NCBI GenBank assembly: GCA_031425655.1
Contig: JANPJS010000258.1
Location: 1 to 45,473 of the forward strand
DNA length: 45,473 nt
Source: Abditibacteriaceae bacterium
GTDB taxonomy: Bacteria > Armatimonadota > Abditibacteriia > Abditibacteriales > Abditibacteriaceae
Direction of reading: 5' to 3'
Shown: in pieces, positions 9,001-15,000 of the stretch
Layout: the number at the start of each line of letters is the position of its first letter
Position numbering within the stretch: the first letter of the stretch is position 1
Program-made: the position numbers

Positions 9001-12000
9001 CGAATCGAGGGTCTTTCAGGGTGGCGACGACATCGGCGTGCCGAAAAAGATACCAGAAGCCGGGTCTTTCAGGCGTTGGTTCCACCGCGCAATGCACGGG
9101 ATCGTGATTGCGGTAGAGATGATAAAACGGATAAGGGTCGCTGAGAAACCCCGAACGCAGCGGATTGAACGGCTCCATGTCGTAGCTGTAGATTTGCGCG
9201 TGGAGCGATTCCTTCCCTCGCGCGGTGCGTCTGACCTTTAATTGAGATGACAACGAAGCCGGCGGCTGCTCGCTGTGATCCCTATAACCAAAAACGAATA
9301 GGCTGAGCGTCGAGCGTGGTAATTGTCGCACTCAGTATAGGCGAGAGTGCCGCAAAAGCGCACGGCGGCGCACATAAGGTTCCCGTTATGGTGCCGGGCA
9401 TTTACACTTGCGCGAGGTAAAACGCTTTTCATCACTCAGCCTTACGCGGTGCCGCCGTTTTTAAACGGGAAGGCGGGAAGAACGGGAAGGCGGGAAGAGA
9501 TTTGAGTGCTTTAGGCGGACGGGAAGCGATTTGGAGGCTTGGCTAACGAGCGGTGTGCTATCAGGACAGTGTTCAGGCCGTTTTTTCACGTTGTCAACCC
9601 TAAAAGATTTCCCGTCTTCCCGTTCTTTCCGTCTTCCCGTTAAAAACCACGGCACCGCATAAGGTGAGTCAATCAGGAGAATAACGTGAAAATTGCTGTT
9701 CAATTAGGCTTGCTGCCGGGAAATACCAATCTCGAAAAAGCGAAATGGGCGCGGGATCACGGCGTCGAGGGCATCGAATTGGGTGTTTGGGGCGGCGGAT
9801 TGCCTAAAATGCGCCGCGACGCCGAAGAAATCAACGGTTTGGTGCCGATTTCCAGCGTTTGCGGCAACGCCGACGCCGAAGGCAACACCAGTTTCGAGTT
9901 TCTCAGCCCCGATCCGAAAAAGCGCCGCGCCAGCATTGACGGAGCCAAAGCGATTCTTGAGTTTTGCGGCGAAGTCGGCGCCGCCGGACAAATCGTGCCG
10001 CCGATTTTCGGCGCGCCGCAAGTGCCGGATTTATCGCCCTTCAAAACGCCTTTGGAAATCGAAGAAGAACTGATAATCGCCGCCTGCCGCGAAATCGGCC
10101 CGCACGCGCAATCGCACAAAACGCTGTTTCTTTTGGAGCCGCTCAATCGCTACGAACAGCATTATTTACGCAAGCAAAGCGACGGCGTGCGCGTGATAAA
10201 AGCCTCCGGCGCGCCCGGCATCAAGGTGCTGGCCGACCTGTTTCATATGCACATCGAAGAAACCGACAGCCCGGCAGCCTTGCGCGCGGCAGGCAAACAC
10301 GTCGGACATTTGCATTTGGCCGACAACACGCGCATGGAACCGGGCACCGGCGACATTGACTTCGTGGCGGCCTTCAAAGCGTTGAAAGACATTGGCTTTA
10401 CGGGTTTCATGGCTTACGAATGCGGCATTTCAGGCGACACGCTGCGCAAAAAAGCCGCGAACCTGTCGAAGAGCCTCGACTTCGTGCGTAACGCGATTGA
10501 AAAGGCGAGCATCTGACGTAATGCCAAGAGGGTTATAATTAGCGTAAATAACATAATGGAGAGGTGGGCAAATTGAAGTTTGGCTATGAAACCATTATCT
10601 GGGGTCGAGAAATTGACGACCTTGATACTGTGCTTGACATTATCGCGGGCGCTGGATATCAGGGTGTGGAATTCTCTCAGTGGCCGGGACGCTTGCCGCC
10701 CATACAAGACCTGCTCAAGATGCTGGAAGATCGCCAATTGGCGTTGATCGGTTTTTCAGGCGGCACCTTGTATGAGCGCATAAAGTATTGCGGCAATTAT
10801 CGCCCCGAACATCTGATCGTCTTTGATTGGAGTGAACTCGCTGAGAAAGCCACAGCAGACGGGTTCAAATTTGCGTTGCACCCACATCTCCATAAACCAA
10901 AGCACCGGATTGAGGAAGTTTTTGATTTGCTCAAAAAGCACGACAAGCTTCTCTTTCTGCCGGATACTGCTCTGCTAACTATCGCAGGTGACGACCCGGT
11001 TGAGGCGATTCAGAGGGCATTCCAATTGGGTAAAGGAAGGCTGGTTGGTGTCCACTTGAAAGATTGGTCGCCGGAATATGGGCATGCCGCGCACCGCTAT
11101 GCCTACGGCTTCACGGAACTCGGCACCGGCATCATTGAGTTGGAAGCCGTGCTTCGTGAGTTGCAGCAGTCTCATTTCACCGGTTGGATGATTGTGGAGC
11201 AAGACAACACGCGCAAAGATATTCCAACTTCTGTTTCCGAATCTGCACAGTGGCTTGCTAATAAGGGTTTTTCCGTTGTGCCTCGCAAAGCGTCAGCCCT
11301 TTCGTCCCCCAAACCCCGAATCCCCGCGAAGCGGCCAACCACCTTTTCCGCAGATGACGAAGCACGCTTTTTAAAGGCCATATCGCGTGCCAGCACTATG
11401 GAACTGAACGCCTGTTACGACCAAATTGCTGCATCTTTCAGCGAACTCGTGCCTGACAGCCTCGTGATGGTAATGATGTGTAATCCGATAAACAATGTTG
11501 TCAGCCTACTTTCTTTGGCAAACGGGATTTCCACTCAATATGATGAATACTCCCACGCACAACGGACTGCCAACCTGCTCACTGACGGGCACTATGCCGC
11601 AGCATTGGGAAAACTCACTCTGGAATTCGAGAAAACCTTGAGTGGTGTTGCCGTCGAACGGCAAACTACGACATCATTTGACCTGACCACACCTCATCCC
11701 GGCGCAGAATATGGATATCCTTCTGCAAACTTGGGTTATTCAAAGTTGTGCGAGCAGTTAGGCCTGACCCGCATGGTGGGAATTCCAGTGTTGGGTATTT
11801 CCAATCCACGCCACGCGCGCTTAATCGTTAATATTTTTTCCCCGGCCAATGATCGCTTGGCTCATCAGGATGAGCTTGAATATCTCTTCTATCTGAGCCA
11901 ATATGCGGGTATTGCAGCCGATTCGGCTCTGGATGAGATATGTTCTTTTGCTGCCGCCAGTGTCAACATCTTAGCCGGGCCTAGCACGACCACGAATGGG

Positions 12001-15000
12001 TTTTTGGAAAAAATCCGAGACCTGATCTTGGAACTCGTGGAATGTGAGGCCATTTCCATCTTTTTGATAAACGACATAGACACCAAACTTGAATTGGCCA
12101 CTTCAACAACGAATGCTGACTGGCGTGTGCCTGAGAATGAGCAATTCTATGCAAAGGGCGAGGGGCTGACGGGCCAGGTTTGGGACCGCAGAGAAGCACT
12201 GCTTACGACTGATACGAATCAAGAGCCGGGGCATTCGGGTAAGAGTGCGGAACGCGTCATAACTGAGCGGAAGGCTTGCCTGATGGCGCCGTTAGTCAAC
12301 TCCAGAAACGAGGTCGTCGGAGTCGTGCGCTGCATGAATAAACATGAGTCTCGCCCGCAAGACCTCAGGATGTTCACCAACGATGACGTAGCAATTTTGG
12401 AAGCGATTGGCCAAGCCGCCGTTCCTCACCTGCAAATCCTCCTGAGCGAGGAGTGGCGTGCCCGCGCTCTGGGTAGGATGATTCATGAATTTAAAACGCC
12501 ATTGGTTGCCATTCGCGGCGCCGCTGACTTGATGGATGCTGAATTCGAGAAGCGGCGCACTTCCGCCGTCGAATTTTTCGATCACGACTACCTGGAAGAC
12601 ATCTGGGCTTGGAGCGATATTATGCGCCGGTTGCTTGGTAATGCTGACGTTTTTCGTTATCCATCGCTGGAGATCCCGCTTCAGCCACAACCCACGTTGT
12701 TATTGAAACACGTTGTTGCGCCGGCGGTTAACCAAGTGCAGATTTTACTGCGCAATCGTGGTTTCTCTCAGAACAGCATTCGCTATGGAAGCTTCACAGT
12801 GATCCCCGATTTGTGGATTGACCGAAGCCAATTTCAGCAGGTGATTTTCAACCTGTTGTCTAATGCAATTAAGTATTGTTATCATGATGCCAAATCCTTT
12901 CAGGTGGCAATTGTGGGAGAGATAGAGGCCGGAGATTTCGTAGTGCGATTTCGAGATTGGGGGCCGGGAATCAGTCGAGAAATGCGTGAAGCCATTTTTC
13001 GGGAGGGCATCCGAGATACAAACGCCATAAAGGACAACGTCGCGGGACAGGGACTTGGCCTTTGGGTGGTGCGGAAGATTGTGGAGGCTCATGGCGGTGA
13101 AGTGCTCGTGACGAAGTTGCGTCAGCCGACGGAAATTTCCATTTACTTGCCTCACTCGCTGGCCTCCCGTCCACCTCGCTCGTGACGCCGGGCAAAAACC
13201 ACAGCATTAAGGAGAGAGCCAATGGATACAAAGGAACCAGTGCAACGCCTTGTCTTACTGGTAGATGATGAGACGATGCCATCTGATCTTTACGTGCGAG
13301 CGTTAGAGCGAGTCGGATTCAAAGTTGAGCAGCGATTCGATCCTGATGAAGCGCTCGCCTTCGTGGAAAAGGAAGGACAGAATATCAAGGCTATCATCCT
13401 CGATGTGATGATGCCTCCGGGTAGCTATGGCAACAAGCGCACTGAGGACGGTTTGACGACTGGAGTTCTGCTTTACGCCGACCTGCAACAGCGATGCCCA
13501 TATGTGCCAATTTTTGTGACGACCAATACGGCAAACCACGCAACTCTTCAGCAATTTCCGCAGGGGCCACTGCTCCGTATTATTCAAAAGATAGATTATC
13601 CGCCTCGCGCTTTGATTAAACTCGTCCAAGAAATGATTGACAAGGAAGATGCTAACGATGTCGAATGATTTTGGAACTTCAAAACATGAACCGCAATTGT
13701 CAGGCGAAGATCGCTTCTGGCAGATGGTCAACGAACCACAATTGCTGTTGGATATGAAAGGCTTGGAAAATGCGTTAGGTGAACTTCAAGAACAGCTTGA
13801 TGAAAGTCAAGTGGAATTGCTTGAAGAAATTGGCGGACATTTATGGCGACAGGTCATCATGGGTCTTCGTCAGAGAATTAGTTTGGTTGAGGCCGCGAAC
13901 GCTACGGATGATGAAACGAGAAATTTTAAGGTCGGGCAACTCGCCGACACACTTAAGAACGAATACCCAGTATGGTTAATTCGTGTCGCCGCCAGCACCA
14001 CTACCCCGCCCAATGTCGCGGAGGCGGCGAGGGAGGTGTTGCACGAGTTCGGCTTAACCGCCGAAGAGTTGGCAGAGGAAGCAGAGGGCGAGGCGGTGCT
14101 GGCAGGCGTGGGAGAACCGTCGTCGCCCATCCTTGTGGTGGAAGAGCAACCACAGGAATACATCGTCAGCGTGCCGAGAGGATTACAACTGGCTGCGGCG
14201 GGAGAGGCGCGCCATTCTCTGCGTGACGTGCAACTGCGGAAAGACATTCACATCCTCCGCTCGGCAGGTGAAGACGGCAATCTGGCGCTAATGACGGCGC
14301 GGGAGGCCGCACACCTCAAAGCCACCATGCCGGATTTGTTGGTGGAACCCAACGTGCTCTACAAGCTGATCGGGCATCCGCTGCTCGATAATTTCAAGTC
14401 ATTCGATGCACCGTCCGTATGGGGGCGCAAAACGGTCACTGTGCGTGTAGTGGATATCAACAATAATCAACGGCCCGTTCCCGACGTAACTGTTTATTTG
14501 ATCGTTGATCCCGTCAAGCGTTCGGGTTACAAAGGCATAACGAATAAACAAGGGGAATGCCGCCTGAGCATCCACGCCAGCATTCACGCCGCGCACAAGC
14601 TATGCGACCTTCTACTGCTGCCGAAAGCGGGTTATTGGAATCGCTCACTCAATCAAATTGCAATCACTGATGAGTTCGAGACGTTTGTTCGTCCGCTGTT
14701 TGATGCGCCCGGAGGGGCTTACGATTGGGGGCACCAGTGCTGCGGGGGGCGGGGCGGATTATCCGACGGCGCCGAGATCAAAATCGGCATCATTGATTCG
14801 GGCGTGTGCCGTGACCATCCTTGGCTGGCTCCGGCCAAGGGGCACAGTTTTGTTGATGGCCCGAAAAAATATCCGTGGCATGAGGACGATCTGGGGCATG
14901 GCACGCACGTTGCGGGCGTCATCGCGGCTCGTCTTGCCAGCGCGGGCGGTTCAGGATGTGTAGGATACGTGCCGCAGGCGCAGATTCATTCTTATCGCGT

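Follow-up and report, generated by a model that had tools for sequence, protein, structure and literature searches.

The window analyzed here is a stretch of 45,473 nt (contig JANPJS010000258.1 of an Abditibacteriaceae bacterium) that carries, in the same orientation, genes for a histidine kinase, a receiver and a protease and a small ORF, located between two copies of a direct repeat (Table 1). The kinase ORF starts at a TTG codon (10573) with GGAGAGGT 7 nt upstream, and an alternative in-frame GTG at 10564 would give 873 aa. Pfam matches were AP_endonuc_2 (PF01261) at residues 84–230 (1.7e-18; 67.7 bits against a cut-off of 31.1), GAF_2 at 473–616, a weak HisKA at 631–660 and HATPase_c at 750–861. 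The AlphaFold2 model of the whole protein had a pLDDT of 86.9 and a pTM of 0.75. No transmembrane helix was found in the kinase (top 19-residue hydropathy 1.63) and its most hydrophobic stretches are GAF strands or a GAF helix in the model. The ORF is real, and Pfam, model and hydropathy agree with the survey's finding of an 870-aa soluble kinase made of an IolE-like barrel, GAF and HATPase. What had been described as one GAF region does have GAF content, although divided into two tandem domains.

Table 1. Position of the features of the cassette and its boundaries in the window.
Feature	Position	Strand	Details
IolO-like AP_endonuc_2 gene	9686..10516	+	insertion target; IolO match 1.5e-31, below cut-off
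Left direct repeat	10391..10507	+	3' end of the upstream IolO-like gene
Soluble histidine kinase	10573..13185	+	870 aa; TIM barrel, linker, GAF1, GAF2, DHp, CA
IolE/AtOGE-like compact (beta/alpha)8 barrel	10573..11277	+	residues 1–235; model pLDDT 97
Family-specific beta7-alpha7 loop	11071..11112	+	residues 167–180; consensus PxxGRSxHRYARGF; predicted docking lid on the GAF pair
Tandem GAF domains	11344..12444	+	residues 258–468 and 472–624; CyaB2/PDE tandem GAF matches
DHp and HATPase	12448..13155	+	H638; boxes N760, N764, D795, G797, G799, G825–G829 intact
Single-domain receiver	13222..13668	+	148 aa; D15/D16, D61, T101, K123 present; no output domain
S8 subtilase	13658..15637	+	659 aa from ATG; triad D380/H414/S597 intact
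79-aa ORF	15741..15980	+	resembles internal prodomain-like segment of subtilase (residues 166–237)
Right direct repeat	16165..16281	+	orphan copy of the IolO-like 3' end, 5774 nt downstream

The kinase core has the residues of class I enzymes, with an acidic +1 position (H638-E639), N760/N764, D795-x-G-x-G, F809 and G825–G829, and the DHp/ATPase region matched HK853 (6e-18). The position of H638 is a His in 115 of the 121 full-length family proteins. The response regulator that had been noticed after the kinase is a bare receiver with its acidic pair (D15/D16), phospho-Asp (D61), T101 and K123 in place, and its end is overlapped by 11 nt by the start of the subtilase. Subtilase residues 1–370 had no homologues among 7998 candidates and no Atlas match. 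Its N-terminal helical domain is weakly similar to a helical family of third-gene proteins found behind other kinases (loci L011, L015, L100, L101 and L110), with an hhalign probability of 40% and E 3e-4, or E 0.18 against the genome background. The idea of a single adaptor domain common to all third genes was rejected, this weak link being the only one and eight other partners giving probabilities of 6% or less. The 79-aa ORF matched no PADLOC family and aligns with the subtilase segment at 31% identity over 72 aa (pairwise E 4e-5), which makes it a candidate free inhibitor of the protease, by analogy with I9 prodomains.

Insertion and flanking regions

We read the cassette as an insertion because a direct repeat of 117 nt (copies 85% identical) brackets a 5.8-kb segment of low GC3, 0.55/0.50 compared with 0.64–0.70 in the flanking genes. 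In run X1, which may be the source sample, a single contig spans positions 9621–16348 without differences, and all the ORFs of the cassette are unbroken. Within the phylum the kinase was found in 9 of 401 genomes, and within the genus in none of three. Three same-genus genomes keep the right-hand flank genes; no empty site was found in the same-genus stretches examined, where two contigs end at that point and 18 kb of G266 lacks the IolO-like gene. This gene was also considered as a dedicated partner of the kinase and rejected: its 3' end is the bracketing repeat and no clustered orthologue lies beside the kinase in loci L011–L040. In the barrel tree it is far from the kinase barrels. There is also a chemotaxis cluster near the cassette in the window.

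The barrel, its pocket and the docking loop

The best fold match of the barrel was IolE (3cny; Z 23.9, rmsd 2.6, 227 residues aligned), tied with Art22 and the Brucella IolE, and a profile search also gave 3cny at 3e-23. The barrel scored below the curated cut-off of the IolE equivalog TIGR04379 (42.5 vs 290 bits), and no conserved inositol or GFO genes were detected beside the kinase in the loci examined, as an iol-operon location would have. The motifs also have a likeness to those of endonuclease IV. An endonuclease IV-like sensor of DNA damage was discarded, since the fold is much closer to IolE (Z 23.9) than to the best endonuclease IV, which came at rank 41 with a Z of 16.9.

The site is formed by E33, H103, H105, D131, H161, K163, D164 and E209, and no other part of the kinase's N-terminal half is as conserved as this pocket. 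E33, H103, D131 and H161 are invariant in the 121 full-length proteins, E209 is kept in 118 and H105 in 109, while the non-metal pocket residues T7, Q36, R69, Y82 and K163 are kept in 109–119. The residues H103, H105, D131, H161 and E209 align with H132, H134, D163, H189 and E233 of AtOGE, a 3-keto-glycoside eliminase in which, in the available text of its description (PMC10628242), H134 is catalytic and the other four bind the metal. The metal ligands on beta5, 6, 7 and 8 and the catalytic His are all present, so that by alignment the barrel retains both the Mn site of these eliminases and their catalytic His. The motifs listed in the survey (HPH, DTAH, HLKDW, GR..HRYA.GF, EQD) were found again in the family alignments. 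Its statement that metal-site residues are kept holds for H103, D131, H161 and E209; the His of DTAH, in turn, is not a metal ligand in AtOGE.

The copy in the window does have DTAL instead of DTAH, as had been pointed out as a possible objection, and it departs from the consensus at L134 (His in 117/121), I82 (Tyr in 110/121) and H171 (Arg in 104/121). These changes could mean that the family works as described and that this particular barrel has decayed or changed its specificity. We find this quite improbable given that all the metal ligands and H105 are intact, as are the ORFs of the cassette, and that the closest homologue (P0003, ~50% identity) has the same Leu. The active relative of solved structure, AtOGE, has a Trp at this position and its metal ligands elsewhere, which largely answers the objection.

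The conserved loop that had been attributed to the barrel is present in the family and is the predicted docking surface for the GAF pair. When the separately encoded barrel of locus L028 was modeled with its own GAF pair the ipSAE was 0.81, and 0.01 for the best of three controls (the ipSAE mark is reached by 116 of 157 solved pairs and by 2 of 215 mismatched pairs). The runs agree in at least 93% of the contacts and the partner pLDDT is at least 89. In the predicted complex, the active-site face of the barrel lies against the GAF1/GAF2 junction and the GRSxHRYARGF loop packs on the helix from GAF2 to the DHp, the contact on the GAF side being the N-x-x-N-x-x-H-x-R hairpin of GAF1 and the exit helix of GAF2. 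Since the two alignments used for the model contained the same 59 fused proteins, the predicted L028 contact may reflect the one made in fused proteins. Searches of the PDB gave no similar barrel-GAF complex.

Two alternatives have to be weighed here. The barrel might be an active eliminase, dehydratase or isomerase whose product is bound by a GAF domain, with the same effector relay. The whole catalytic set is kept, including the His equivalent to H134 of AtOGE, and split forms would permit a diffusible product. However, the GAF pair covers the active-site face in the predicted complex, favoring a conformational read-out, H105 is replaced in 12 of 121 proteins while the metal ligands stay, and the GAF pocket positions are poorly conserved, so we regard such a catalytic trigger as rather improbable. 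GAF2 keeps N589-K590...F601...D605, residues that could possibly bind a signal in a scheme of this kind. The other alternative is a metal-dependent inhibitory cap or decoy that senses Mn/Fe status, oxidation or attack by a phage protein instead of a sugar and releases the kinase by undocking. The metal ligands are the strictest positions, divergence is faster outside the site, and the corresponding loop of AtOGE, described as disordered (PMC10628242), would here be a conserved protein interface. The conservation of the non-metal pocket residues is nevertheless what would be expected for an organic ligand, and we consider the cap very unlikely.

Family distribution and neighboring genes

The family, previously thought to be small, has 239 clusters at 50% identity (E<=1e-30) scattered patchily over many phyla. 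The counts of the survey were reproduced: 31 other proteins match kinase residues 1–460, of which 28 carry both PF01261 and PF02518, and the named homologues come from KSB1 and Verrucomicrobia. Split forms, a mobile cassette and effector-like cargo had not been noticed in that survey. The barrel occurs fused to the kinase or as a separate gene, located directly before a GAF-kinase gene in 24 of 159 loci, with stop and start overlapping or 7 nt apart in the three loci read closely. Locus L109 was rejected as a true split, its barrel being at zero tree distance from the fused L108; probably it reflects a recent stop or an error. A quick tree placed 59 kinase-linked barrels on one side of a branch and 60 stand-alone ones on the other (SH-aLRT 84 only). 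Sugar genes surround the closest of the stand-alone barrels (14 GFO oxidoreductases and 4 PfkB kinases among 54 neighbors, and also ROK, LacI and DeoR). The median identity within their clade is 59%, whereas the kinase-linked barrels are more diverged (36%). A word-limited search with the kinase core for other input domains recovered barrel-bearing proteins and a single 604-aa GAF-kinase. We found no description of a barrel-kinase fusion in the literature searched; subscription papers, supplements and domain-architecture tables could list it. The tree split, the conserved pocket and the predicted docking of the L028 barrel support the original idea that an enzyme fold serves as kinase input.

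Almost every locus with sequence after the kinase has a receiver at that point, and effector-like cargo was found within three co-oriented genes in 20 of 45 non-redundant loci: MBL (6), RES (4), aspartyl protease (3, weak), CHAT (3, one with trypsin and one with Pepco), and also trypsin, S8, HNH and a PDC-M32A-like receiver fusion. In all 20 the gap between the receiver and the next gene was between -17 and +34 nt. Receiver and effector are mostly separate proteins, and the receiver fusions seen in 7 loci other than that of the window have no second receiver downstream. The six MBL loci had no adjacent protease in the genes scanned, and a small non-protease partner precedes the MBL. The receivers of the RES loci have extensions for which only their position before RES suggests an Xre-like role. 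Their identity as Xre antitoxins was not supported, with no Pfam match, a negative Atlas search and an hhalign probability of 0.2% against nine Xre-C proteins (shallow profiles). By hand classification, 16 of the 45 loci have unknown, membrane or unrelated genes, and 9 have no co-oriented cargo. Upstream there was a modest enrichment in defence genes, with PADLOC matches in 12/92 vs 3/90 proteins (p 0.03) and 9/41 vs 3/42 loci (p 0.07), several of them generic domains and among kin that are not independent.

Sugar genes were found upstream in loci L026, L025, L011, L093, L114, L033 and L031. The barrel could belong to a sensor of metabolism or stress that plays no part in conflict, reading a catabolic intermediate (3-keto-sugar or inosose), with the receiver relaying in trans to motility or other phosphorelays and the effector-like genes being passengers at insertion hot spots. 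This would fit the sugar-operon ancestry of the barrel, the genes that precede L026 (one for a GMC oxidoreductase and two for 3-keto-disaccharide hydrolases), the location of the window cassette after an IolO-like gene and near a chemotaxis cluster, and the 9 loci without cargo. Against it, the compared loci share no GFO gene, transporter set or transcription factor next to the kinase, the cargo is tightly coupled to the receiver and sometimes fused, and the IolO-like gene of the window is the insertion target. We consider it unlikely.

Proposed reading and comparison with known systems

The sequences establish the architecture, the presence of intact sites in the kinase, the receiver and the protease, the repeat that marks the insertion and the swappable genes coupled behind the receiver. 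The reading that we propose, and to which we give about an even chance, is a mobile Detocs-like two-component conflict cassette, probably anti-phage or anti-competitor, with a repurposed keto-sugar metalloenzyme as sensor. The pocket would be filled by an oxidised sugar or cyclitol that chelates Mn2+ (3-keto-glycoside or inosose type), or by a conjugate bearing one. The ligand would shift the family loop, altering the autophosphorylation of H638 and the phosphotransfer to D61 of the receiver, which would then act by protein contact on the next-encoded product, here possibly the helical N-terminus of the subtilase. Such contact may release the toxic or proteolytic effector, whose leak would be restrained by the free prodomain copy (the 79-aa ORF). 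We know of no keto-sugar signal linked to phages.

More tentatively, and with doubt outweighing belief, these loci may be immune cassettes gated by a phosphorelay. A domesticated keto-sugar enzyme dependent on Mn, either fused to the kinase or docking on it as a separate subunit, would act as receptor for a danger signal that derives from a sugar and reports infection or attack, and a bare receiver would connect to interchangeable proteases, nucleases and RES toxins. If so, small-molecule immune signals would include a class that has gone unrecognised, and the input mechanism would be new for histidine kinases; to our knowledge, no small-molecule input has been identified for the defensive two-component systems described so far. 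The readable conserved metal pocket, with relatives acting on 3-keto-sugars or inosose, makes the trigger huntable by ligand screening with a domain of 235 residues. The natural split forms offer a clean test of the control of a GAF-GAF kinase by a soluble subunit, and the swappable cargo offers many candidate effector pairs. Even if the sensor were metabolic, this would be an undescribed class of kinase sensor with hundreds of clusters.

In the available text on Detocs (Rousset et al., bioRxiv 10.1101/2023.01.24.525353) the system consists of a kinase (DtcA), a stand-alone receiver (DtcB) and a receiver-effector fusion (DtcC). Like it, the loci described here are scattered over phyla and have a sensor kinase, a stand-alone receiver and interchangeable effectors, cell-killing in Detocs, in place of a DNA-binding output. 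However, the input here is the barrel plus two or three GAFs, while the Detocs figure legend names TPRs; there is usually one unfused receiver and no DtcB/DtcC pair (a bare receiver and an unfused subtilase in the window); and the cargo comprises proteases, RES, MBL and HNH, with no PNP effector among our loci. No Dtc-named model was matched in PADLOC 2.0, whose library may lack DtcA/B/C profiles. The cassette is not a member of Detocs, lacking both the three-gene layout and the TPR-type sensor. Ambrosia, as far as its available text goes (bioRxiv 10.1101/2025.09.30.679545), also has a two-component module in a defence operon, and one of our loci likewise ends in an HNH nuclease, but there the regulator contains a wHTH and its proposed action is transcriptional, with a methylase; neither the wHTH nor the methylase is present here. 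MBL and Pepco are described as antiviral death effectors gated by proteases (PMC12642450), and the effector classes of those modules (MBL, Pepco and proteases of trypsin, caspase and S8 type) are met again among the cargo of our loci. The text available for those modules mentions no kinase, receiver or two-component system, and in our loci MBL comes after a small non-protease partner instead of an adjacent protease. Finally, the myo-inosose-2 dehydratase IolE (3cny, 9zmu), Art22 (8z1i) and AtOGE (8bvk) share with the barrel the same fold (tied at Z 23.6–23.9) and the same His-x-His, Asp, His and Glu site on beta5–beta8. In contrast to them, at ~20% identity, the barrel described here is shorter, has its own T7/Q36/R69/Y82/GRSxHRY signature and is bound to a kinase, outside a sugar operon.

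Architecture of the kinase and the fold of its barrel

In the 870 aa coded by the kinase ORF, Pfam detects a xylose-isomerase-like barrel, a single GAF domain, HATPase_c and, weakly, HisKA. The survey's finding was that a sugar-isomerase-like barrel appears to act here as the input of a kinase, and its count of homologues was borne out, with 31 other proteins, 28 of them carrying both the barrel and the HATPase families. The AlphaFold2 model (29 sequences; pLDDT 86.9, pTM 0.75) begins with a full barrel of eight strands (1-235); a linker connects it to a pair of GAF domains, from which a long helix runs into the DHp, followed by the CA domain. 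Its Foldseek matches are HK853, phytochromes, and CyaB2 and PDEs with their tandem GAFs. H638 is intact, as are the ATP boxes, and neither sequence nor model contains a transmembrane segment.

Modelled by itself, the barrel reached a pLDDT of 97. The top solved folds were tied: the myo-inosose-2 dehydratase IolE (3cny; Z 23.9, rmsd 2.6, 227 aligned), Art22 (23.8) and Brucella IolE (23.6), with endonuclease IV below IolE at Z 16.9. A profile built from 49 barrels found 3cny at 3e-23 and AtOGE, a solved 3-keto-glycoside eliminase (8bvk), at 3e-10. The barrel is a member of the AP_endonuc_2 superfamily, yet no IolE ortholog. According to the AtOGE description (PMC10628242), the Mn ligands are H132, D163, H189 and E233 and the catalytic base is H134; counted by hand along the profile alignment, these correspond to H103, D131, H161, E209 and H105 of the kinase barrel, all five kept here. 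The His of the DTAH motif aligns with AtOGE W166 and so is no metal ligand there, the active enzyme working without it. From these enzyme relatives we infer that the ligand would be keto-sugar-like. That the barrel is instead a catalytic trigger feeding a GAF is quite unlikely.

Among 121 full-length proteins (781-1049 aa, drawn from 171), E33, H103, D131 and H161 are invariant, and conservation is high at R69 and Q36 (119 each), E209 (118), H134 (117), K163 (114), Y82 (110), H105 (109) and R171 (104). The window copy departs from the consensus at positions 82, 134 and 171, so that altered specificity or partial decay is possible; taken separately, a decayed pocket seems distinctly improbable.

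Spread of the family and predicted docking of the barrel

The barrel profile retrieved 239 clusters (50% identity) at E<=1e-30; the metagenome scan retained 80 of 239. About 120 of the 171 proteins examined are barrel-GAF-GAF-kinase and 19 barrel only, the remainder being mostly truncated. Named genome loci (best 80 of 153) come from Planctomycetota, Armatimonadota, Acidobacteriota, Verrucomicrobiota, Hydrogenedentota, Poribacteria, Actinomycetota and one gammaproteobacterium. In the host phylum 9 of 401 genomes had a match, and none of three same-genus genomes (79-93% complete). At one locus (L146:4652-9877) the entire barrel-GAF-GAF-kinase unit is duplicated in tandem within a protein of 1742 aa, and the receiver that comes next is fused to a PDC-M32A-like domain; protein P0036 is equal in length and layout.

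The 159 barrel loci comprise 50 fused (barrel and kinase in one gene), 24 split (two adjacent genes) and 71 stand-alone ones; the other 14 lie at contig ends. Whole-barrel fused and split loci score at least 200 bits and stand-alone ones at most 104, two fragments excepted. Read at base level in three split loci, the barrel stop overlaps the kinase ATG or precedes it by 7 nt. A quickly built tree with 120 rows has a branch, not strongly supported (SH-aLRT 84), that sets all 59 kinase-linked barrels apart from the rest; two starred clades contain 16 of the 17 split rows, and the remaining one, L109, is likely a recent break. Kinase-linked barrels share a median identity of 36% with each other and of 25% with a stand-alone sister clade of 48 members, within which the median is 59%; the two groups are differently sampled. 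The sister clade keeps the site, with H-N-H, and lacks T7, Q36, R69 and the GRSxHRY loop. Compact stand-alone barrels (~247 aa; L040-L071, L144-L170) with H-N-H, DTAH and HLKDW, frequently next to GFO oxidoreductases, PfkB kinases and URO-D-like genes, are the sensor's nearest relatives and are apparently uncharacterised.

We predicted the complex of a naturally separate barrel (L028), a relative of the window copy, with the GAF pair of its partner kinase, both alignments including the same 59 fused proteins. It scored 0.81 against 0.01 for the best control; of 157 solved pairs 116 attained the mark for this score, as did 2 of 215 mismatched ones. The runs shared at least 93% of their contacts, and partner pLDDT was at least 89. 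The barrel is thus predicted to dock on the GAF pair through its C-terminal face (window numbering 8, 11, 35, 62-65, 107-114, 137-139, 167-180, 211-212), in contact with residues 408-416 and 450-457 of GAF1 and with 603-614 of the GAF2 exit helix. In this predicted interface the family loop is modelled as a lid wedged on the helix leading into the DHp; the equivalent loop is disordered in AtOGE (PMC10628242). A barrel serving as a metal or decoy cap is very improbable.

The cassette in the window

We read the kinase-receiver-protease block as an inserted cassette. GC3 is 0.55 in the kinase, 0.50 in the receiver and 0.58 in the protease, versus 0.64-0.70 across six flanking genes, and a single contig from run X1, which may be the source sample, matches 9621-16348 without change. 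No integrase was found at the cassette, and no empty site in three same-genus genomes, whose available stretches lacked the IolO-like gene. The 79-aa ORF is a candidate free protease inhibitor. As a lead, the subtilase N-terminal helices may be the receiver-binding part; they weakly resemble small third-gene proteins elsewhere (hhalign 40%, E 3e-4, not significant against the genome background).

Features of the cassette and its surroundings in the window
Feature	Position	Strand	Remarks
Chemosensory cluster	53-7653	-	two CheW, MCP, CheA-REC, CheB, REC-SpoIIE; adjoins a cytochrome P450; nothing in this analysis ties it to the cassette
Inverted repeats, long, imperfect	9440-9664 and 16276-16367		element repeated genome-wide, raised read depth; flank the IolO-like gene and right cassette repeat
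IolO-like gene	9686-10516	+	
Direct repeat, left copy	3' end of the IolO-like gene		117 nt, 85% identical; the copies bracket the cassette genes
Kinase	10573-13185	+	
Receiver	13222-13668	+	single-domain; D15/D16, D61, T101, K123 present
Subtilase	starts 11 nt within the receiver's 3' end		D380/H414/S597 intact
79-aa ORF	15741-15980	+	unannotated; resembles the subtilase's prodomain-like segment 166-237
Direct repeat, right copy	16165-16281		orphan copy

Neighbouring genes, proposed signal path and known systems

The sole conserved neighbour of the kinase is the receiver. We manually sorted 45 non-redundant loci whose sequence continues past the kinase (near-identical loci collapsed; L023, L131 and L139, at contig ends, dropped). 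An effector-type gene lies within three co-oriented genes in 20 of them; in 9 there is no cargo in the same orientation, and the remaining 16 carry membrane, helical or other genes. The cargo is an MBL (6), RES (4), aspartyl protease (3; weak calls, two at E 0.003-0.006 and the third solely by likeness to one of those), CHAT (3; one with trypsin, one with Pepco), and, once each, trypsin, S8, HNH and a fusion of the receiver with a PDC-M32A-like domain. The MBLs match the defence models LmuA, RTasMBL and PDC-M48B at 1e-6 to 1e-12, and in all 20 loci the next gene starts -17 to +34 nt from the end of the receiver gene. As a control, 54 of 64 stand-alone-barrel neighbours were scanned at a stricter threshold (1e-6), the other ten belonging to the most distant rows; the 54 gave GFO oxidoreductases (14), PfkB kinases (4), ROK, LacI, DeoR and others, with no family in 14 and no effector family in any. 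Upstream, cargo left out, PADLOC matches were 12/92 versus 3/90 proteins (p 0.03) and 9/41 versus 3/42 by locus (p 0.07); some are generic domains, so that the association with defence islands is modest.

Several loci show further arrangements. Four with split barrels and mostly three-GAF kinases (L031:13637-14593, L115:5987-6970, L125:11584-12567, L127:6254-7237) have a receiver fused to a helical domain with invariant PWS and WIR, immediately followed by a RES gene; Xre homology of this domain was not supported. Two loci have an additional receiver paired with a helical protein, both from these same families, upstream of the kinase (L101:6732-7662) or convergent to it (L110:2908-3820). Three loci without cargo have large P-loop NTPase-like genes convergent on the receiver (L018:12788-15199, L019:12992-15742, L130:3761-6427, minus strand), the first located after a type III-C CRISPR effector operon. 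JAB, ThiF and SLATT genes, a CBASS-like ancillary set, immediately precede one split barrel locus (L122:4195-7931).

In the most likely reading, which as a whole chain has about an even chance of holding, a metal-bound keto-sugar-like ligand would occupy the barrel, the lid loop would pass its state to the GAF2-DHp helix, the kinase would phosphorylate the bare receiver, and this would act on the product of the adjacent gene, releasing the effector. Architecture, sites, repeat and cargo are established from sequence, and the docking is a prediction; gene coupling and analogy suggest a receiver-effector contact and a role in defence. A metabolic sensor is an unlikely alternative, and its best support is that sugar genes precede the kinase at several loci, L026 being the clearest case.

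In the literature searched, main texts only, we found no account of a barrel-kinase fusion. The barrel-kinase system is real; we take it as a variation on defensive two-component systems, in which the sensor derives from an enzyme and is so far undescribed. Compared with Detocs, the DtcA/DtcB/DtcC two-component defence system (bioRxiv 10.1101/2023.01.24.525353), the system of the window would work in a similar manner, but it departs from Detocs in the three-gene layout and in the type of sensor.
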